In this document: positions 797-12,766 of the stretch, in pieces | Layout of the letters: each line of letters opens with the position of its first letter | Position numbering within the stretch: position 1 is the stretch's first letter | Source of the DNA: a plasmid | NCBI RefSeq assembly: GCF_056746865.1 | Contig: NZ_JBWKMP010000007.1 | DNA: 12,766 bases | Strand: one strand, 5' to 3' | Notes under the pieces: model-generated | The model's input: only the letters and a program-made list of their open reading frames with translations | Database searches by the model: none | Told to the model about the DNA's origin: nothing | Translations under genes and position numbers: made by a program

Positions 797-1153
797 ATGG
801 GGGTAATGATACCGATGAAACGCGAGAGGATGCTCACGATACGGGTTACTGATGATGAACATGCCCGGTTACTGGAACGCTGTGAGGGTAAACAACTGGC
901 GGTATGGATGCGGCGGGTCTGCCTGGGGGAGCCGGTTGCCCGTTCCGGGAAGCTGCCGACACTGGCACCGCCGTTACTGCGTCAGCTGGCCGCCATCGGG
1001 AATAACCTGAATCAGACCGCGAGGAAGGTGAACAGCGGGCAGTGGTCTTCCGGTGATCGGGTTCAGGTGGTGGCCGCACTGATGGCCATCGGGGATGAGC
1101 TGCGCCGGCTGCGTCTGGCCGTCAGGGAACAGGGGGCGCGGGATGATAGTTAA
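797..1153 (+). CDS. mbeC: Mobilisation accessory protein MbeC (MobC-like relaxosome component)
   Basis: 118-aa ORF immediately upstream of and overlapping the relaxase gene, in the ColE1 mbeC position. Start codon uncertain (ATG at 797, 806 or 815); purine-rich stretch aagggggga upstream. Confidence 0.75.
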   Translation: MGVMIPMKRERMLTIRVTDDEHARLLERCEGKQLAVWMRRVCLGEPVARSGKLPTLAPPLLRQLAAIGNNLNQTARKVNSGQWSSGDRVQVVAALMAIGDELRRLRLAVREQGARDDS

Positions 1154-2717
1154 ATTTCATGCCAGGGGAAAAGGTGGTGGCAGTGGTCCGGTTGATTACC
1201 TGCTGGGGAGGGAGCGTAACCGCGAAGGCGCAACGGTGCTTCAGGGTAATCCGGAAGAAGTCCGGGAACTCATCGATGCCACGCCATTTGCGAAGAAATA
1301 CACGTCAGGCGTTCTGTCGTTCGCGGAGAAGGAGTTGCCGCCGGGAGGACGTGAAAAAGTGATGGCGAGCTTTGAGCGCGTACTGATGCCAGGTCTCGAA
1401 AAGAATCAGTACAGCATCCTGTGGGTGGAGCACCAGGACAAGGGACGGCTTGAGCTGAATTTTGTCATTCCGAACATGGAGCTACAGACCGGAAAACGTC
1501 TCCAGCCGTACTACGACCGGGCAGACAGGCCGAGAATTGATGCCTGGCAGACGCTGGTGAATCACCATTACGGGCTGCATGACCCCAACGCCCCGGAGAA
1601 CCGCCGGATACTGACTCTCTCTGATAACCTGCCGGAAACGAAACAGGCGCTTGCTGAGAGCGTCACACGCGGGATAGACGCTCTTTATCATGTAGGGGAG
1701 ATAAAAGGCCGTCAGGATGTGATTCAGGCGCTCACAGAGGCGGGGCTTGAAGTGGTCAGGGTGACGCGAAGCAGCATCAGCATTGCAGACCCGAACGGCG
1801 GGAAGAATATCAGGCTGAAAGGAGCGTTTTATGAGCAATCTTTTACAGACGGGCGCGGAGTTCGAGAAAAAGCTGAAAGAGAGAGCCGAATCTACAGAGA
1901 AAGTGCTGAACAACGAGTTCAGGAGGCTCGGCGAATCTGTAAGCGAGGTTGTGACATCAAACGAGACGAAAATCAGAGACGCTATAGCCCTGTTCACAGC
2001 CTCGACAGAGGAATCGCTGGAGAAACACCGGGAAGGGGTGAAAGAGGCGATGAGGCAGCACAGGAAGGACGTGTTAAAGCTGGCAGGGAATACGGGCATG
2101 ATGTTACTGGGGATAGTCTTTCTCCTGTTTACCGCGAGTGGCGGGACGCTCTGGTATCTTGGCGGGAGGATACAGGCGAACCTGGAAGATATCAGGAAGC
2201 AGGAAGAGACATTGCAGAAACTGAACGCGAAGACATGGGGCGTGGAGTTCGTGCAGGACGGGAACAGGAAATTTCTGGTCCTTCCGTACGGGAAATCAGC
2301 AGAGGTGATTCCCTTTCAGGGGAAAGAGTGGGTACATCTGAAGGAGTGACACAGAGTGACAGAGCTGGAAACACATTTGCTGAACGCCTTAGAGCAGCTG
2401 CAACAGGACTATATGCAGCGGCTGAACGAATGGGAGAGCGCCTTCGTGGAATTGCAGAAGATGTTTTCGCTTACGCAACGGGACAACGCGATGCTGAACG
2501 AGCGGGTCATGCAGTTGAGTCAGCAGGTGCAGCACTTGAGCGAGCAGACAGAACACTTGAGCGAGCAGACAGAACACTTGAGCCAGTTATACAGCGAGAG
2601 CAGGAGATAAGGGACGAACTACTGATACAGGAACGTGAACATGAGCTATTCCTAGAGCGTGAGCGCCATCTGGAAATACAGGAACGGACACTGGATGGCC
2701 CGTCGCTGGGATGGTAA
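1143..2717 (+). CDS. mbeA: ColE1-type relaxase MbeA (MobA, HEN/MOB-P family)
   Basis: 524-aa ORF starting MIVKFHARGKGGGSGPVDYLLG with internal ATG at 1143, matching ColE1 MbeA from memory. Contains WVEHQDKGRLELNFV region. Overlaps mbeC 3' end by 11 nt. Confidence 0.9.
   Translation: MIVKFHARGKGGGSGPVDYLLGRERNREGATVLQGNPEEVRELIDATPFAKKYTSGVLSFAEKELPPGGREKVMASFERVLMPGLEKNQYSILWVEHQDKGRLELNFVIPNMELQTGKRLQPYYDRADRPRIDAWQTLVNHHYGLHDPNAPENRRILTLSDNLPETKQALAESVTRGIDALYHVGEIKGRQDVIQALTEAGLEVVRVTRSSISIADPNGGKNIRLKGAFYEQSFTDGRGVREKAERESRIYRESAEQRVQEARRICKRGCDIKRDENQRRYSPVHSLDRGIAGETPGRGERGDEAAQEGRVKAGREYGHDVTGDSLSPVYREWRDALVSWREDTGEPGRYQEAGRDIAETEREDMGRGVRAGREQEISGPSVREISRGDSLSGERVGTSEGVTQSDRAGNTFAERLRAAATGLYAAAERMGERLRGIAEDVFAYATGQRDAERAGHAVESAGAALERADRTLERADRTLEPVIQREQEIRDELLIQEREHELFLERERHLEIQERTLDGPSLGW
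1831..2349 (+). CDS. mbeB: Mobilisation protein MbeB, encoded in the +1 frame inside mbeA
   Basis: 172-aa ORF fully nested in mbeA in another frame, with a hydrophobic segment (MMLLGIVFLLFTASGGTLWYL). Same size and position as ColE1 MbeB as I recall it. Confidence 0.7.
   Translation: MSNLLQTGAEFEKKLKERAESTEKVLNNEFRRLGESVSEVVTSNETKIRDAIALFTASTEESLEKHREGVKEAMRQHRKDVLKLAGNTGMMLLGIVFLLFTASGGTLWYLGGRIQANLEDIRKQEETLQKLNAKTWGVEFVQDGNRKFLVLPYGKSAEVIPFQGKEWVHLKE
2356..2610 (+). CDS. mbeD: Mobilisation protein MbeD (about 9 kDa), nested in the 3' part of mbeA; GTG start
   Basis: 84-codon ORF beginning with GTG at 2356 directly after the mbeB stop (2347-2349). Coiled-coil-like sequence. Position and size match ColE1 mbeD from memory. 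Confidence 0.55.
   Translation: MTELETHLLNALEQLQQDYMQRLNEWESAFVELQKMFSLTQRDNAMLNERVMQLSQQVQHLSEQTEHLSEQTEHLSQLYSESRR
2533..2583. repeat. Perfect 21-bp tandem duplication (cacttgagcgagcagacagaa x2, plus 9-bp partial third copy) inside overlapping mbeA/mbeD
   Basis: Direct reading: units at 2533-2553 and 2554-2574, partial at 2575-2583. In frame in both genes (ERADRTL x2 in MbeA, EQTEHLS x2 in MbeD). Confidence 0.9.
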
Positions 2718-2825
2718 CCAAAGACAGGCTAAAGTGTTGTCAGCGCGTTTCCGGTGCATTTTTTTGGATAATGGTTGGTTCAGGGCACTAGGAACTAGCT
2801 TCAGTCAGGCCTTGCTGAAAACACA

Positions 2826-2961
2826 GGAACGCGTTAAAACGCATACGGACGCGTTTCTGGCGCTCAAAAACCATGGGGTTAGTGTGGGTAGTGTGTATAG
2901 CAACAGGAGCCTGGAACGCGTTCCGCTTCTTCTGTAATCGACGCCAGAATGCGTTTAATGC
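2826..2961. promoter_or_regulatory. Cluster of dyad-symmetric motifs (GGAACGCGTT x2 including perfect palindrome GGAACGCGTTCC; inverted pair gacgcgtttctggcgc / gacgccagaatgcgttt)
   Basis: Direct reading: ggaacgcgtt at 2826-2835 and 2913-2922; gacgcgtttctggcgc at 2848-2863 with inverted partner cgccagaatgcg at 2942-2953. Function unknown; may be protein-binding sites. Confidence 0.3.
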
Positions 2962-3100
2962 TTCTTCTGATGGTATCAGAGAGGAGCTGCTTGAGTTATT
3001 CCTGTTGGCCACAGAGCGTAATTATCTCCTTTTCAGATCCACACGGGGATACGTCAGAATCGGAACTGAGCAAGGATTACTGAAAGATACTGTTTGCCAG

Positions 3101-3125
3101 AAAAAAAATCCTCATACATGATGAG
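3101..3125 (-). terminator. Hairpin followed by T8 on the minus strand (candidate intrinsic terminator for minus-strand transcription leaving the AT-rich island)
   Basis: Plus strand aaaaaaaatcctcatacatgatgaggat: 8-bp stem atcctcat/atgaggat, 5-nt loop. The A8 run on plus becomes a U-tract after the stem on the minus strand. Confidence 0.45.
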
Positions 3126-3420
3126 GATAAAGTCTTAAAGGTCCATTCTATGGAGTGTCGGATTGAAAAATTTCTCCGGATGATATCCTTCACAGTTTAA
3201 ATGTGATTTCAACCATAAGTTTTTTATGGATTTTGTTAAATAAAAAAGAATTGAGTCGTGTTTCTGATATGTCTGAATATAATAAGTGAACAGTTATAAA
3301 ATAATTGTTTTATATTTATTGTGAGTTTGATGTTATGTTCTGCATAAATAACTGTAGTTTAGAATATTATTCTTTTATATTTATAGCTGTGAGATGATAA
3401 ATTATAAGTGTTCTTTGTGC

Positions 3421-3448
3421 TATAAAGAACCCCCCGTATAAGGGGGGG
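3421..3448 (-). terminator. C6/G7 hairpin (ccccccgtataaggggggg) with U-rich tail on the minus strand
   Basis: Stem 3430-3435 / 3442-3448. Minus-strand reading gives the stem followed by ttcttta. Confidence 0.35.
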
Positions 3449-3564
3449 TAAAAGATGGGTTTACTTCTTTTTAGTCCATGCCCTGGTGAGCTACATGAAG
3501 CTCGACACTACAGTAAAGATTTGCAGTTTTTTTGAACTTTACGCAAGCAATTTATTTACATTGT

Positions 3565-3593
3565 AAAGAAAACCCCCTCAATTCCGGAGGGGG
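3565..3593 (-). terminator. Hairpin ccccctc-aattccg-gaggggg with U-tract on the minus strand
   Basis: Stem 3573-3579 / 3587-3593. The plus-strand A-run 3566-3572 becomes ttttctt 3' of the stem on the minus strand. Confidence 0.4.
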
Positions 3594-3898
3594 AGTGTAG
3601 GGAAGTGCCTGATTTATTTTATGTACGCGCAAAAATGAGATAGCTTTTATTAGATATCATCAGCCCTGTCTGCATCAGTCAGCTCCTTACAGCGTCAGGA
3701 GTACTGATGAAGGGGGGGAACGTTCCTGCGTTTTTGCAAAGGCAATCCGGCTAGAGGCTTTACTACGCAGAAACATTCCGGACAACTTTTTACCCCAGTG
3801 TAACTTGTAGATCAACCAGATTTTGTTGCAGTAAAAATACAGTGGTTTCGAATTTGTAACATTTGTCACAAAAATAACATCAATATGTTGGTTTTCTG

Positions 3899-3928
3899 TT
3901 GATAAATGGTTTGGTCGCTGATTATGAT
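3899..3928 (+). promoter_or_regulatory. Sigma70-like promoter candidate (TTGATA, 18-bp spacer, TATGAT)
   Basis: -35 ttgata at 3899-3904; -10 tatgat at 3923-3928. Followed by a leader hairpin gtactcc/ggagtac (3935-3952) that would sequester the AGGAG at 3944-3948. Confidence 0.3.
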
Positions 3929-3992
3929 TTCCTTGTACTCCACAGGAGTACAGTCATGTGCATACTAAAATCCGTGTTTTCGATAAAATTAA

Positions 3993-4020
3993 GGCCGTGA
4001 TACAGAATCACGGCTTTTTT
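3993..4020 (+). terminator. Rho-independent terminator (ggccgtga-tacagaa-tcacggc + T6)
   Basis: 7-8-bp GC-rich stem 3993-4000 / 4008-4014, T-run 4015-4020. Confidence 0.6.
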
Positions 4021-4056
4021 CTTGCCTGAAAGGATCATTTACGCTAGAAGAATTAT

Positions 4057-4119
4057 GAGCGCGTCTCTGGTGTTTGTTGCAGGGATAATATCTAATATGG
4101 GGCACCGGAAACGCGCTCT
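4057..4119. repeat. Dyad module A: 16-bp imperfect inverted repeat (gagcgcgtctctggtg ... caccggaaacgcgctc) around a loop of about 31 nt
   Basis: Direct reading. Paralogous to module B; the arms differ from B by a compensatory change (gcgcg/cgcgc in A versus gcgtg/cacgc in B). Confidence 0.5.
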
Positions 4120-4197
4120 CCCTTCGTATACAGAATGCCCATTAATTTCTTCTTCCTGATTTTCCAGACATATATTCTTGTGTAAATTAAAAAACAG

Positions 4198-4272
4198 AGC
4201 GTGTTTCTGGTGTGAATTTGTTGGCTACAATGTGCATTGTTGTTCTGTGTTCCAGAAACACGCTTCTTTTTT
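4198..4272. repeat. Dyad module B: 13-bp perfect inverted repeat (agcgtgtttctgg ... ccagaaacacgct), loop about 38 nt, A-run upstream and T6 downstream (bidirectional terminator-like)
   Basis: Direct reading: arms 4199-4211 and 4252-4264, T-run 4267-4272, A-run 4190-4195. Confidence 0.5.
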
Positions 4273-4395
4273 GAGATGCACATCGGTCTTATACAAAGAG
4301 GGATGGTTGTATCTGTGTCAGAGTTTTGTTATTTTTTGTATGCTCAGTTATTGATGGTTAATAATATCAAGAAAATCAGCAAGTTCCTTACACTA

Positions 4396-4421
4396 CCCCT
4401 CTTCAGTAGAGGGGTTTTTTT
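4396..4421 (+). terminator. Rho-independent terminator (cccctct-tcagt-agagggg + T7)
   Basis: Stem 4396-4402 / 4408-4414, T-run 4415-4421. Confidence 0.65.
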
Positions 4422-4490
4422 ATCTGGTACGCCGTAAAACCCGGTCCTTCAGGGCGTAGAGGATGTCAAAAATTTCTTCGAAAGGTAATA

Positions 4491-4721
4491 CCCGGTATCC
4501 CGCTCATGCTGGCGAACCCAGACACGCAGGGTCTCTGGCGTACAGCCAATCTTTGGAGCAATGGAACAAATTGCCGCCCATTGTGAGTCATATTCGCCCT
4601 GGCTTTCCAGAACCATACGAACTGCCCGTTGACGGACTTCGGGGGAAAAACGAGTATTTTTAGTCATCCTGTTTACATCTTTCTCAGGAAGTTTAGTCTC
4701 CAGGATTTCCGGGGCGGTTCA
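4491..4721 (-). mobile_element. 5' remnant of an IS3-family element (IS629/IS1203-like): terminal inverted repeat plus the first 59 codons of orfA, truncated
   Basis: Minus-strand ORF 4449..4667 begins [59 protein letters not shown], which matches IS629-type OrfA from memory, then diverges into an unrelated 13-aa tail. The reverse complement of 4690-4721 is the IS-end-like tgaaccgccccggaaatcctggagactaaac. Confidence 0.7.
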
Positions 4722-4949
4722 GTCCGGCAGAGATAAATTGCCACGGGAAGTTAGAGAAAAGTGCGGGAAAATGTCTTAAGAATGATTCTGGAAGAACGAA
4801 AAGTAAGAAGCGCAAAGGCTATGAGGGCAAAAGAGTATCGTGCCGCAGCGAATACTTTTACCTGGCAGCCTGTACAGCGCAGGTGAATAGACATTCCCCT
4901 GACTCATCCTGCTCCCCTTGGCGGCGAAGGGGATTAATCCCTATCCTGT

Positions 4950-5200
4950 AACTTCTATTTTGTGGAATCGAAAACAGCTGAAAATTGTGAAAAAAAACCG
5001 TTTCAGTCGTCTCAGTAAGGAAATTCGCTTGTGATTCACCTGGATGCATAGGTATGCATAAGGTTAAAATTTATCAGGCGCGATCGCGGTAGTTTTTCGG
5101 GGGGGTTGTTGCGATTTTTACCTGTCTGCTGCCGTGATTGCGCTGAATGCATTTCAGCGGTGCGTACAATTAAGGGATTATGGTAAATCCACTTACTGTC
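4950..5200. other. cer: cer-like multimer resolution site with XerC/XerD core ggtgcgtacaa-ttaaggga-ttatggtaaat at 5159-5188
   Basis: Core is identical to the ColE1 cer crossover site as I recall it. Upstream accessory region (gcataaggttaaaatttatcaggcgcgatcgcgg ...) also resembles cer, including paired tgcata half-sites near 5042-5060 (possible ArgR box). Confidence 0.7.
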
Positions 5201-5612
5201 TTCCCTCGTAGCCATCGAGATAAACCGCAGAAATCGTCTCAGCCAGCAGCCTGGATTTTTTCGGGGTAAGGTCTTTGCTGCGGTAATCAGTACCCGCAAA
5301 TTGAGTTGTGCCCCGGAGTGAGTTTAAAAATTCCTGGCTGTGAAACTGCTGAATGCGTTGCTGCACATCACTCCGTGATTTTCCTGTCGCTTTATCCTTT
5401 GCTCCCATATCCCAGAACTGCCGGAAAAAAGGCACCATCATTCGTGTTGTGTCGGCCTTCTGGGTGGAAAAGTTAGGATCAAAACCATCGTCTGATGCAT
5501 AAACGTAATGCCGGGTATGTTGTTCCACACTGCCCTTTGGCGTGCAGGCTGTCAGGACCGTTGCCGCTGTCAGCAGGGCGATAAGATACAGTGTGCCGCC
5601 GGAACGTCTCAT
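5193..5612 (-). CDS. Putative lipoprotein of unknown function (139 aa; signal peptide with lipobox LTAC)
   Basis: N-terminus MRRSGGTLYLIALLTAATVLTAC has a basic n-region, hydrophobic core and L-T-A-C lipobox. Mature protein is hydrophilic. I do not recognise the family. Confidence 0.55.
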   Translation of the reverse strand: MRRSGGTLYLIALLTAATVLTACTPKGSVEQHTRHYVYASDDGFDPNFSTQKADTTRMMVPFFRQFWDMGAKDKATGKSRSDVQQRIQQFHSQEFLNSLRGTTQFAGTDYRSKDLTPKKSRLLAETISAVYLDGYEGRQ

Positions 5613-6392: not shown

Positions 6393-7456
6393 ATGGAAAC
6401 AGCTGTAGCGTACTATAAAGATGGTGTTCCTTATGATGATAAGGGGCAGGTAATCATTACTCTTTTGAATGGTAATCCAGACGGGAGTGGCTCTGGCGGC
6501 GGTGGTGGAACTGGAGGTAGCAAAAGTGAAAGTTCTGCAGCCATTCATGCCACAGCTAAATGGTCTACTGCTCAATTGAAGAAAACGCAGGCAGAACAGG
6601 CTGCCCGGGCAAAAGCTGCCGCAGAAGCACAGGCTAAAGCAAAAGCAAACCGGGATGCGCTGACTCAACATCTGAAGGATATTGTGAATGAGGCGCTTCG
6701 TCATAATTCCACTCATCCGGAGGTTATTGACCTGGCTCATGCCAATAATGCAGCGATGCAGGCAGAAGCAGAGCGGTTGCGCCTTGCAAAAGCAGAAGAA
6801 AAAGCCCGTAAAGAAGCGGAAGCTGCGGAAAAGGCTTTTCAGGAGGCAGAACAACGACGCAAAGAGATAGAGAAGGAGCAGGCTGAAACAGAACGCCAGT
6901 TGAAACTGGCTGAAGCTGAAGAGAAACGGCTGGCAGCATTGAATGAAGAGGCCCGGGCAGTGGAGGTGGCACAAAAAAATCTTGCTGCTGCACAATCTGA
7001 GCTGGCGAAAGTGGATGAAGAGATTAAGACTCTCAATACCCGTTTAAGCTCCAGTATTCATGCCCGTGATGCAGAAATGAATACGCTGTCCGGAAAACGA
7101 AATGAGCTGGCTCAGGCATCTGCTAAATATAAGGAACTTGATGAACTGGTCAAAAAATTGTCACCAAGAGCTAATGATCCGCTTCAGAGTCGTCCTTTTT
7201 TCTATGCCACCAGTCGACGGACGGGAGCCGGTAAGATTATGGAGGAAAACAAAAACAGGTAACAGCATCAGAAACGCGTATTAACCAACTTAATGCTGAG
7301 ATAAATGGAATTCAGGGGGCTATGTCTCAGGCTAATAATAATCGTAATACAGCTGTTTTACGTGTTCATGAATCTGAAGAAAATTTGAAAACAGCGCAGA
7401 CTAATCTCCTGAACTCGCAGATTAAGGATGCTGTGGATGCAACAGTTAGCTTTTAT
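6393..7456 (+). pseudogene. cea: Colicin E1-type gene, 5' part (translocation and receptor-binding domains), with a 1-nt frameshift in an A-run (7246-7249) and truncated by the IS21-family insertion at 7456/7457
   Basis: METAVAYYKDGVPYDDKGQVIITLLNGNPDGSGSGGGGG... matches colicin E1 from memory. Frame 0 stops at 7260-7262; the colicin-like reading continues in the -1 frame (VTASETRIN...DAVDATVSFY) to 7456. Confidence 0.85.
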
Positions 7457-7658
7457 TGCAAAATGGCATCTGAATCGATCGCAGTTTGGCATTCGAATCG
7501 ATCATGATTTGGCATCCATCTCCGATCACAGTTTGGCATCACAATCGATCACGATTTGGCATGCTTCCGATCATTGATTGGCATCCTGCCAGTCACTCCG
7601 GGAATTAACTCTTTTCACCACAGTCTCCATTGCCGTGTTTAAACCAGTGGAGACGTCA

Positions 7659-9224
7659 ATGTCCAGAAAGAGAAAATCCAGGAGCACTATGGAAACCTGT
7701 TTTAAGATTCTTCAGCTCAAGTTCGACAAGAAGCTGACTAACCGTTGTATCGGACTGACGTTACACATCAGCGCCTCAACCGTTTTTGAGGTTCTTGCCC
7801 GCTTCAAAGCCTCTTCTCTGTCATGGCCATTACCTGCTGATATATCCCATGACACGCTGGAGAAACTCATTTTTCCGCCCAAAGACACCTTTGCATCAGA
7901 GCTTGTAATGCCTGACATGTTGTACCTCGATACGGAAATGAGAAAACCAGGTGTGACGCGGCAACTGTTGTGGATGGAATACAAGGCACAGGCGGGTAAC
8001 AAAGCGATGGGATACTCGCACTTCTGCCGTTGCTACCGGGAGTGGAAAAAAACGCGACGTCTCTCCATGCGCCAGGAGCATCGTGCCGGCGAAAAGCTTT
8101 TTATCGACTTCTGTGGTCCTACGGTTCCTGTTATTAATCCGGACACCGGTGAGATACGCCGCGTGGCAATCTTCGTGGCCGTAATGGGGGCGTCCAACTA
8201 TACCTACGTTGAAGCGTGCGAAGGTCAGGACATGATGTCATGGTTAAATGCCCACAGCCGTTGCCTGACCTTCCTGGGCGGCGTACCGAAGCTGCTCATC
8301 CCCGATAACCTCAGAAGCGCAGTGAAAAAGGCCGATCGATATGAGCCTGTCATCAACGACAGTTATCAGGCACTGGCTGAGCACTATGGCACGGTTATCA
8401 TCCCGGCCCGACCACGCAAACCTAAAGATAAACCAAAAGCAGAAAACGGCGTCCTCATCGTCGAACGATGGCTTCTTGCCCGCATCCGTAATGAAACCTT
8501 CCACACGCTCAGGGCGCTGAATGCGCGCCTTAGGGAGTTACTGACAGACATGAATAACCGGCCAATGAAGGGGTACGGCAATCAAACCCGTGCAGAACGC
8601 TTCCGCATACTGGATGCGCCAGCACTCTCTCCGCTGCCTCTGGCACCTTATGAATACACGGAATACAAAGCTGTGAAGGTTGGCCCTGACTACCACGTTG
8701 AATATGCCCGTCACTGGTACTCCGTTCCACACGAACTGGTCGGTCAGCGTCTGTCACTGAAGGCGGGGCAGTCGGTGGTACAGCTCTGGCACAAGGGGCA
8801 GTGTGTGGCGCAACATCCGCGCAGCACACATGAATATAAACACACAACCAATCCGCTTCACATGCCAGAGCGCCACCGGCAGCACGGGACATGGACACCG
8901 GAACGCCTGATCGAGCAGGGAAAACGTACGGGCCCGTCCACAGGCCGGGTGGTTGAATCCATGCTGAAGGCAAAACCCCATCCGGAACTGGCTTATCGTG
9001 CAGTTCTGGGGCTGCTGGCACTTCAGAAAAAATACGGCCCGGAACGGCTGGAAAAGGCCTGTTACGTTGCCCTGCACTATAACGCCCCTGACAGACGCTT
9101 TATCGACAATCTGCTGCGTCACCATCGGGAGAACCTGGAGCTTCCATTATCCCGCCAGGGCGAACAACATCCGGCATATGCTTCAGAGCATGAAAACCTG
9201 CGTGGTCCGGGCTACTACCACTGA
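7659..9224 (+). CDS. istA: IS21-family transposase IstA (521 aa)
   Basis: Long ORF with a DDE-type integrase core and the IstA-typical layout; followed 16 nt later by istB. ATG at 7659 preceded by ggag. Confidence 0.85.
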   Translation: MSRKRKSRSTMETCFKILQLKFDKKLTNRCIGLTLHISASTVFEVLARFKASSLSWPLPADISHDTLEKLIFPPKDTFASELVMPDMLYLDTEMRKPGVTRQLLWMEYKAQAGNKAMGYSHFCRCYREWKKTRRLSMRQEHRAGEKLFIDFCGPTVPVINPDTGEIRRVAIFVAVMGASNYTYVEACEGQDMMSWLNAHSRCLTFLGGVPKLLIPDNLRSAVKKADRYEPVINDSYQALAEHYGTVIIPARPRKPKDKPKAENGVLIVERWLLARIRNETFHTLRALNARLRELLTDMNNRPMKGYGNQTRAERFRILDAPALSPLPLAPYEYTEYKAVKVGPDYHVEYARHWYSVPHELVGQRLSLKAGQSVVQLWHKGQCVAQHPRSTHEYKHTTNPLHMPERHRQHGTWTPERLIEQGKRTGPSTGRVVESMLKAKPHPELAYRAVLGLLALQKKYGPERLEKACYVALHYNAPDRRFIDNLLRHHRENLELPLSRQGEQHPAYASEHENLRGPGYYH

Positions 9225-9240
9225 CAGAAGGAACAACAGT

Positions 9241-9996
9241 ATGAGTGATAACCTGTTAAACAAACTGACCCAACTGAAACTCCCGGCGATGGCCGGGAGC
9301 CTGATACGGCAGCGGGAAACGCCTCAGACCTACGACGAACTGTCGTTCGAGGAAAGGCTGACGCTGCTGGTTGATGACGAGCTTCTGAGCAGGGAAAACA
9401 GCCGTGTGGCACGGTTGAGAAAAAATGCCGGCCTGAAATACCAGGCAACACCGGAAGGGCTGCGCTATCCGGCCTCAAGAGGTCTGCGGGCTGAACAGAT
9501 GAGAGAACTGCTGAACGGCCACTACATAACCCACAGGAAAAACCTGCTGATAACCGGTCCGACAGGATGTGGCAAGAGCTGGATAGCCAATGCGCTGGGC
9601 GAACAGGCATGTCGACAGAAACACAGCGTCCGGTACTGTAGAACCGGGCGATTACTGGAACAACTGGCTCAGGGACGTGTTGATGGCAGCTGGCTGAAAT
9701 ATCTGAAACAGTTGCAAAAAATACAGGTTCTAATCCTGGACGATCTGGGGCTGGAACAGTTAAGTAACGCCCAGTGTAATGACCTTCTGGAGCTCATAGA
9801 GGATCGTTACGGACAAAGCAGCACGATAGTGGTAAGCCAGTTCCCGGTAGATAAATGGCATGGTCTGATGGAGAACCCAACAACAGCAGATGCCATCCTG
9901 GACAGACTGGTACATAACTCACACCGGGTGGTCCTTCAGGGAGAGTCACTGAGGAAAAATCCCCCGGTAGTGGAAAGCAGCGAAAAAACGCGTTAA
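9241..9996 (+). CDS. istB: IS21-family helper ATPase IstB (251 aa)
   Basis: Walker A GPTGCGKS and Walker B VLILDDLG motifs. RBS gaagga upstream of the ATG at 9241. Confidence 0.9.
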   Translation: MSDNLLNKLTQLKLPAMAGSLIRQRETPQTYDELSFEERLTLLVDDELLSRENSRVARLRKNAGLKYQATPEGLRYPASRGLRAEQMRELLNGHYITHRKNLLITGPTGCGKSWIANALGEQACRQKHSVRYCRTGRLLEQLAQGRVDGSWLKYLKQLQKIQVLILDDLGLEQLSNAQCNDLLELIEDRYGQSSTIVVSQFPVDKWHGLMENPTTADAILDRLVHNSHRVVLQGESLRKNPPVVESSEKTR

Positions 9997-10095
9997 AAAG
10001 CGGTAGAAAAAGTTAAGTTCCCGGTTGATCGAATGGATGCGAATCGCTGATCGGACTTCGATGCCAATCCGTGATCGAATAGAGCGGAATACGCA

Positions 10096-11040: not shown

Positions 11041-12235
<1,195 letters not shown>

Positions 12236-12370: not shown

Positions 12371-12766
12371 GTAAACGAAAAAACCGCCTGGGGAGGCGGT
12401 TTGATCGAAGGTTAAGTCAGTTGGGGAACTGCTTAACCGAGGTAACTGGCTTCAGCAGAGCGCAGATACCAAATACTGTCCTTCCAGTGTAGCCGTAGTC
12501 GGGCCACTACTTCAAGAACTCTGTTGCACCATTTGCGCCATCATCGCTCTGCTAACCAAGTTACCAACGGCTGCTGCCAGTGGCGCTTTGTCGTGTCTTA
12601 CCGGGTTGGACTCAAGACGATAGTTACCGGATAAGGCGCAGCGGTCGGGCTGAACGGGGGGTTCGTGCACACAGCCCAGCTTGGAGCGAACGACCTACAC
12701 CGAACTGAGATACCAACAGCGTGAGCTATGAGAAAGCGCCACGCTTCCCGAAGGGAGAAAGGCGGA
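12371..12766 (+). ncRNA. RNAII: RNA II replication primer precursor, 5' portion (continues into 1-about 160 if circular)
   Basis: Homology by eye to the ColE1 RNA II 5' region, with stem-loops such as ccgcctggggaggcgg (12384-12399). Downstream sequence is near-identical to pMB1 (ggtaactggcttcagcagagcgcagataccaaatactgtcctt...). Confidence 0.75.
12372..12479 (-). ncRNA. RNAI: RNA I antisense copy-number control RNA (about 108 nt)
   Basis: Complement of the first roughly 108 nt of RNA II. The minus strand begins acagtatttggtatctgcgctctgctgaagccagttacc as in pMB1 RNA I, and ends in a stem-loop plus U-tract (complement of aaaaaaccgcctggggaggcgg). Confidence 0.7.

Follow-up and report, generated by a model that had tools for sequence, protein, structure and literature searches.

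A candidate small RNA gene with an overlapping 14-codon reading frame on a ColE1-type colicin plasmid

A short unit at about position 3900 to 4023 of a ColE1-type colicin plasmid most likely represents an undescribed plasmid-borne small RNA gene, possibly translated as well, judging from its sequence features and from the comparison of two plasmid lineages (the window, i.e. the whole stretch of DNA analyzed here, comprises 12,766 nucleotides). We tentatively read the unit as an independently transcribed small RNA gene of ~85–90 nt with an architecture like that of Hfq-dependent sRNAs, an assignment that we hold with slightly less than even confidence. A small structured transcript starting at ~3935 is suggested because conservation sets in at the −10 element, the loops change freely while the stems are kept, and the unpaired core is invariant. 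Furthermore, the setting resembles that of RNA genes, since the surrounding 1.3-kb stretch holds further units that resemble sRNAs and end in terminators, two of them paralogs of each other. The sequence-only reading of this DNA had offered two options, a leader-peptide-like regulatory element or a roughly 90-nt small RNA, and the comparative data favor the small RNA (~88 nt) over the leader.

Promoter-like site, predicted fold and reading frame

The σ70-like promoter that had been proposed at 3899–3928 of the plus strand is present (Table 1), with TTGATA and TATGAT separated by 18 nt; it is a 10/12 match to σ70 promoters and the top-scoring site within 3000–4800, although a match of at least 10/12 arises in 53% of dinucleotide shuffles of these 1.8 kb and is not significant alone. 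From its position we infer a transcription start at ~G3935, 7 nt past the −10, where a hairpin with a predicted energy of −8.1 kcal/mol begins. This is the leader hairpin, gtactcc paired with ggagtac, that was thought to sequester AGGAG (3944–3948), and indeed four of these five bases (GGAG) are paired in it. The 14-codon frame claimed at 3956–4000 translates to MCILKSVFSIKLRP, and its TGA stop codon (3998–4000) lies, as the earlier reading had it, within the stem of the terminator, in the 5′ arm of an 11-bp hairpin. Shuffling the 88 nt 5000 times gave an AGGAG followed after 4–9 nt by ATG in only 15 cases; since the arrangement seen here, with 7 nt in between, is unlikely to arise by chance, the mini-ORF may be translated. 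The frame contains no run of regulatory codons, and the 14-aa peptide predicted from it is basic and amphipathic. A second 14-codon frame starting with MCI had also been pointed out, and it exists (4230–4274, MCIVVLCSRNTLLF), ending in the T-run of the hairpin at 4190–4272; the suggested kinship of the two frames fails, however, as indels destroy the second one in the other lineage, where it reads MFIASVPCSRTRLFLRRMSV.

Downstream of the 5′ hairpin follows a linker with a high predicted unpaired probability, which is a candidate core for base pairing or Hfq binding. The strong terminator placed by the earlier reading at 3993–4020 corresponds to a hairpin at 3991–4017 with a predicted energy of −14.8 kcal/mol, followed by TTTTTT; on the minus strand the same hairpin scores as a weaker terminator with 8 pairs. 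Terminator-like sites are in general enriched seven-fold in the stretch, with nine seen versus 1.3 ± 1.3 expected. The RNA from 3935 to 4022 (88 nt) is predicted to fold into the 5′ hairpin, a weakly structured linker and the terminator, with −26.8 kcal/mol and z = −4.5, and none of 200 shuffles was equally stable. The only alternative helix available to the terminator is a weak, long-range one of 8 bp, in which the start-codon region (3953–3961) pairs with the terminator 5′ arm.

In the proposed mechanism, RNA polymerase would start near G3935, ~7 nt past TATGAT, and the transcript would open directly with the 7-bp hairpin, continue with the largely unpaired, A/U-rich segment of 39 nt, and end with the 11-bp, GC-rich intrinsic terminator and its U tail. 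The 5′ hairpin would shield the end of the transcript, the unpaired core would have a sequence-specific function, namely pairing with target mRNAs and/or contacting Hfq, and the terminator with the U tail would serve as Hfq anchor. Enterobacterial Hfq-dependent trans-acting sRNAs typically have such a layout, with a structured 5′ end, an unpaired core and a terminator with a U tail. The 14-codon frame may be translated too, giving a dual-function RNA of the Spot 42/SpfP kind; initiation would then be throttled by the 5′ hairpin, and a ribosome at the stop codon in the terminator 5′ arm would counter termination.

Table 1. Features of the candidate unit, its surroundings and the host plasmid (window coordinates)
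Feature	Position	Strand	Details
MobC, MbeA, MbeB, MbeD	~800 to 2590		
MbeD	2356–2589		
−35-like hexamer	3899–3904	+	TTGATA
Conserved block	3918–3934	+	CTGATTATGATTTCCTT; contains −10 TATGAT (3923–3928) and discriminator
5′ hairpin	3935–3951	+	GUACUCC-ACA-GGAGUAC; stems 3935–3941 / 3945–3951; at predicted 5′ end
Linker	3952–3990	+	mostly unpaired, A/U-rich; invariant; overlaps mini-ORF codons 1–12
14-codon ORF	3956–4000	+	MCILKSVFSIKLRP, then stop; ATG 3956, 7 nt past AGGAG
Intrinsic terminator	3991–4023	+	11-bp stem 3991–4001 / 4007–4017, 5-nt loop, then TTTTTT
Adjacent element	4055–4159	+	module A hairpin (4057–4072 / 4103–4118) and 34-codon ORF MSASLVFVAGIISNMGHRKRALPSYTECPLISSS
Promoter-like site	4159–4186	−	TTTACA-16-GAAAAT; 9/12, AT-rich DNA
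IS3-family transposase fragment	4449–4667	−	
cer XerC/XerD core	5159–5188		GGTGCGTACAATTAAGGGATTATGGTAAAT; exact match
Exc2	5193–5612	−	
RNAI	12375–12477	−	sole Rfam match in window

Comparison of two lineages

The 1.3-kb stretch is found in a Col-plasmid lineage, at least 98.7% identical to the window, and in a second lineage, ~80% identical over 1.3 kb, in IncK2/Z conjugative plasmids; three alleles of the unit were found in these two lineages, the third of which is common among the IncK2/Z records. Identity between the lineages ranges from ~45% to 100% along the 1.3 kb, and the unit lies in the longest near-identical block. The −10 and discriminator differ at one of 17 bases, compared with 10 of 23 immediately upstream, in the −35 and spacer (3895–3917), where the −35 of the IncK2/Z lineage reads TTGCCG and retains only the TTG. 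The stems of the 5′ hairpin are unchanged (0/14), whereas two of the three loop bases differ (ACA to TGA), and the linker shows no difference at its 39 positions (binomial P = 1.7e-4 at a 20% background). In the terminator three of 22 stem bases changed, and pairing is kept in all cases: the C3995–G4013 pair became T–A, a double compensatory change, and G3993·T4015 became G–C. Three of the five terminator loop bases are changed as well, and since ACAGA to TCTGT is an exact reverse complement, this amounts to a single inversion event. The terminator tail differs at one of 12 positions; UUUUUU in the Col lineage corresponds to only UUUUCCUU in the IncK2/Z alleles, with the 11-bp stem in both. 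In allele 3, the change of G3999 to A breaks one terminator pair and weakens the stem.

Loops thus differ from stems plus linker with a Fisher P of ~1e-4 when counted by bases, but the contrast is weaker when counted by events, because the change in the terminator loop is one inversion. A formal covariation test on the three sequences was not significant (181 of 500 shuffles match it), and our case is therefore built on where the changes fall and not on covariation statistics. The mini-ORF is uninterrupted in all three alleles: between the lineages its last codon changes from Pro to Ser via the compensatory stem change, in allele 3 its stop changes from TGA to TAA, and none of its synonymous sites varies between the lineages. 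As the synonymous sites are invariant and the lone amino-acid change is dictated by the stem, the constraint acts on the nucleotides and not just on the peptide, as would be expected of an RNA segment that pairs with other RNAs or binds a protein. High conservation extends downstream to ~4127, so that the 3′ boundary of the unit is unmarked by conservation and the unit may belong to something longer; other high-identity islands are also present in the 1.3-kb stretch.

With respect to orientation, the plus strand is favored because conservation sets in at the −10 of this strand, because the G3993·U4015 wobble would be an A·C mismatch on the minus strand, and because the stem is longer and the T-tract better on the plus strand. 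Two minus-strand reading frames were discarded, namely a 128-aa "hypothetical protein" annotated in some IncK2/Z records, which is broken by indels in the window, and an ORF at 3922–4038, which loses its ATG in the IncK2/Z lineage. A search of the small ORFs in the stretch against NCBIfam gave no match, and none of the protein-coding readings thus holds up as a competitor.

No Rfam family covers the unit at the gathering threshold, the best sub-threshold match being suhB/mmgR, which scores 19.6 bits where 41 are required (E = 0.35). When targets of the core were sought with RNAduplex in the window and in the whole IncK2/Z plasmid pHB42-5, the results stayed within the shuffled background. A 15-nt complement at 4269–4283 was rejected as a target, and a 14-nt complementarity between 3648–3661 and the loop of module A was also rejected, as neither is conserved. 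The loop of the 5′ hairpin is not conserved either, which argues against its being a CsrA site, and paralogy of the unit with the neighboring units is not supported. The core sequence and the peptide appear in no paper of the searched literature, and nothing relevant was found in a literature search on pSMS35_8 and IncK2 small RNAs.

Distribution of the two lineages

In PLSDB and 5,426 complete E. coli genomes, the 1.3-kb stretch occurs on plasmids only, with 40 records in PLSDB and 46 records in 36 of the 5426 genomes. A colicin R plasmid also carries the Col-type stretch, as does a 5.7-kb derivative without the colicin genes. In the IncK2/Z plasmids, the copy is located between trbC and the relaxase gene and is always flanked by IS elements. 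Its homology to the window begins ~35 nt before the hairpin at 3108–3128, within an unannotated ORF that ends at 3121, and because it starts inside this ORF the IncK2/Z copy seems to have been captured from a diverged plasmid of the Col type. In 100,044 species genomes there was no match to an exact 21-mer of the core, which matched eight loci in the JGI metagenomes, seven from the same two lineages and one chance match in GC-rich DNA; exact-pattern scans of these two collections yielded no third lineage.

Both lineages co-occur in seven of the 36 genomes (LH10-b-1, 135, EF5-18-41, GF43, GF60, PKF11 and PKF4), where fewer than 0.1 would be expected if they were independent (based on our own count of ~22 genomes of each type). 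Most of the isolates are from poultry. Co-residence fits a mobilization of the Col plasmid by an IncK2/Z helper and leaves scope for recombination between the copies.

Host plasmid and neighboring elements

The window is a pSMS35_8-like ColE1-type colicin plasmid with two extra IS elements, and it aligns end to end with the 8.9-kb plasmids pMTY1886_untypable_2 and pSMS35_8. One extra block (7457–10095) is an IS21-family element within a pore-forming colicin-like gene, with IstA/IstB-like ORFs at 7578–9224 and 8998–9996; the other (11041–12235) is an IS5-family element with its transposase at 11073–12089, inserted downstream of the lysis gene region. These two insertions explain why the window measures 12.8 kb instead of 8.9 kb. 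The cer crossover core is a perfect ColE1 one, consisting of the XerC arm, an 8-nt spacer and the XerD arm, and directly adjoins the gene of the Exc2 lipoprotein. The unit itself sits in a 1.3-kb AT-rich stretch (3122–4445, GC 34–40%), in which no gene is annotated in the RefSeq records. Between MbeD and this stretch, two overlapping ORFs lie in different frames (2659–2937 and 2873–3121); the closest RefSeq records annotate neither of them, and an NCBIfam search gave no match. At the place matching 2659–3121, the annotation of the colicin R plasmid pNRZ14408_3 lists a hypothetical protein of 98 aa, and the ORF pair may be a frameshifted gene.

The adjacent element at 4055–4159 is ~95% identical between the lineages, and its 34-codon ORF is open in both, with two synonymous and six non-synonymous codon changes and no NCBIfam match. 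A transcript that reads through the terminator would enter this element, whose membership in the unit is uncertain. Modules A (4057–4118) and B (4190–4272) are hairpins with long loops and with a 17-nt motif, GAGCGYGTYTCTGGTGT, common to their arms, of which a partial copy lies at 3257–3271 (within 3254–3271); module B, with T-runs on both strands, resembles a terminator that works in either direction. Two inverted, paralogous sRNA- or terminator-like units, at 4367–4420 (plus strand) and 3570–3632 (minus strand), flank a center of ~740 bp that holds the 88-nt unit. They share the pattern AAATCAGnnAnTTCCYTACACT, followed by a GC hairpin and a T-run. The same pair is seen in a related locus, L003, at ~7240–7290 (plus) and ~6440–6500 (minus), and a fifth copy is carried by small MOBQ plasmids of the Col8282 type, beside the AT-rich region upstream of rep (L008, ~960–1018). 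The hairpin stems of these paralogs differ yet mostly stay paired, with two pairs changed on both sides, which is not statistically significant. A degenerate motif search for this repeated unit returned chance matches only.

Terminator-like hairpins face left at 3108–3128, 3429–3449 and 3573–3593 (all minus strand) and right at 3991–4017, 4252–4272 and 4395–4415 (all plus strand), a mirror arrangement, as if small transcription units diverged from ~3650–3900. Conserved islands at 3110–3190 and 3440–3540 lie just upstream of minus-strand terminators. The AT-rich stretch is a hot spot for IS elements. Those that abut or cut the 4395–4415 hairpin (4393–4445, with equivalents in L003–L006) differ from plasmid to plasmid, a further IS3-family copy besides the fragment in the window is inserted at ~4318 in pTB-nb2, and IS1 is found at ~3240–3300 in several IncK2/Z copies. 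Where the alignment of the island stops, the terminal sequences of these IS elements differ between plasmids.

Taken to its furthest extent, the small RNA reading would make the 1.3-kb stretch a protein-free island of RNA genes that moves between mobilizable Col and IncK2/Z plasmids and carries several terminator-ended sRNAs, including the two inverted paralogs. Within it, the 88-nt unit would be a dual-function riboregulator that yields its peptide only when the 5′ hairpin is opened, and whose translation would disable its own terminator, so that a longer read-through RNA would be made in place of the short trans-acting sRNA. As a whole, this combination is very unlikely.

Alternative explanations

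A translation-gated attenuator with a leader peptide, which we consider unlikely, would account for several features of the unit. Transcription from the promoter at 3899–3928 would normally stop at 4017, whereas opening of the hairpin and coupled translation of the mini-ORF would bring a ribosome to 3998–4000, where it would cover the terminator 5′ arm and permit read-through into 4021–4160, with module A and the 34-codon ORF, and beyond. Of the leader-peptide-like option in the sequence-only reading, the geometry stands: the spacing between Shine-Dalgarno and ATG is good and improbable by chance (the 15 in 5000 shuffles given above), the stop codon lies in the terminator arm, and a stop is kept as TAA in the third allele although G3999 to A breaks a stem pair. 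Yet the RBS of this leader is occluded, whereas classical leaders need constitutive translation, and a sensor peptide fails to explain the invariance of all synonymous sites. Beyond the terminator, 110 nt are ~95% conserved, no promoter-like site is found on the plus strand between 4020 and 4450, and the alternative helix, albeit weak, could form before the 3′ arm is made; however, a strong antiterminator and a regulatory codon run are both lacking, as is a conserved protein gene downstream on the plus strand. The 34-codon ORF has a dN/dS of ~1 and no family match, and the stretch terminates in IS elements in every lineage.

Similarly, we assign a low probability to the view that there is no dedicated RNA gene at all, and that a plain (bidirectional) terminator or a DNA-level structure lies in an AT-rich, IS-bombarded spacer, with promoter and ORF arising by chance and the identity stemming from recent gene conversion or from a DNA-binding site. 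Seven of 36 genomes carry both lineages, which makes recombination possible, and the patchy identity could partly be due to gene conversion between lineages that often share a cell. A conversion tract would, however, homogenize both of the loops that flank the invariant 39 nt at a distance of ~60 nt from each other, yet these loops differ. The covariation is statistically insignificant, but the terminator is as diverged as the background (~25%) and all of its stem changes nevertheless keep pairing. In such DNA, chance alone would yield promoter-like sites as good as this one; by contrast, the co-occurrence of Shine-Dalgarno and ATG is improbable, and the onset of conservation lies exactly at the −10. 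The island is also rare, being confined to plasmids in 36 of the 5426 complete E. coli genomes, and several further high-identity islands are present in the stretch.

The least probable alternative is a convergent sense/antisense pair similar to type I toxin-antitoxin systems, in which the plus-strand RNA and a minus-strand RNA of ~170 nt would both be terminated by the 3991–4017 hairpin, acting bidirectionally, and would interact through this hairpin, with the 14-aa or the 34-aa ORF encoding a toxic peptide. The minus-strand RNA could conceivably be initiated at the 4186–4159 site and end at this hairpin; both hexamers of the site are retained in the IncK2/Z lineage, despite three changes in the spacer and a 5-nt indel beside the −35. 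The ribosome binding sites of several type I toxin mRNAs are sequestered by 5′ structure, and the unit likewise has its RBS hidden in this way. Although, in addition, the hairpin scores as a terminator on either strand, its loop is exactly inverted between the lineages as if orientation were irrelevant, the minus-strand RNA folds with z = −3.5, and the setting is a plasmid, we regard such a pair as very unlikely: a membrane toxin would have to be longer and less polar than the 14-aa peptide, the hydrophobic run in the 34-aa ORF spans only ~13 residues, the C-terminal half of that ORF drifts freely, the ORFs of 33, 34, 38 and 45 aa have no NCBIfam match at E ≤ 1 (type I toxin models included), no Rfam antitoxin RNA was matched, the minus-strand promoter is just a 9/12 match, and the invariant 39-nt linker lies outside the region of overlap and would be left unexplained.

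Resemblance to known systems

The unit, read as a small RNA gene, is most similar in layout to Hfq-dependent trans-acting sRNAs, with which it shares a predicted promoter of its own, a length of ~90 nt, a structured 5′ end, a conserved A/U-rich single-stranded core, a rho-independent terminator with a U tail and an intergenic location on mobile DNA; plasmid-borne examples of this class have been described for pNDM-HK (PMC5880898). By contrast, the unit has no Rfam family, its U tail is short in one lineage and it is confined to just two E. coli plasmid lineages, so that the likeness is one of layout and not of homology. The dual-function sRNA Spot 42 encodes the 15-aa protein SpfP (PMC8916003). 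As in Spot 42/SpfP and SgrS/SgrT, a short putative RNA of the base-pairing type is combined here with a very small ORF (14 codons) and a proper Shine-Dalgarno sequence; unlike in these systems, the 5′ hairpin locks up the RBS and the terminator stem includes the stop codon, and there is no sequence similarity to them.

The leader-peptide attenuators trpL (14 codons), pheL and hisL, as well as attenuation of the pyrBI type, depend on ribosome coupling. Promoter, short ORF and intrinsic terminator are common to these and the unit, and a translating ribosome could block folding of the terminator, but the unit lacks a downstream biosynthetic or resistance gene, a codon run and a strong antiterminator, and its leader RBS is occluded. 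The par locus of the Enterococcus plasmid pAD1, with the Fst RNA I and RNA II, is a type I toxin-antitoxin locus. Its plasmid location, the possible convergent transcripts with a bidirectional terminator and a 5′ structure hiding the RBS have counterparts in the unit, which differs in having no convincing hydrophobic toxin and no homology to type I toxins, and whose antisense partner is a weak promoter prediction. RNAI, which acts in replication control, and Rcd, encoded at cer, are small untranslated regulators of ColE1, i.e., of the same plasmid family. The unit is at neither location and was rejected as a copy of either, since RNAI is encoded elsewhere (Table 1) and the cer core lies more than 1.1 kb away.

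Implications

Without transcription of the unit, the stretch would be no more than spacer DNA rich in hairpins, an ordinary finding. If it is transcribed, it would be a new regulatory RNA on small colicin plasmids, with a captured copy on the IncK2/Z plasmids that are in circulation among human and poultry-associated E. coli. The catalog of plasmid-borne sRNAs acting on genes of the host or of a helper plasmid is still poor, and in this case the natural comparison of two lineages already marks the nucleotides that are worth mutating. The combination of an occluded RBS, a mini-ORF and an overlapping terminator would furthermore provide a compact test case for the coupling of translation and transcription termination.
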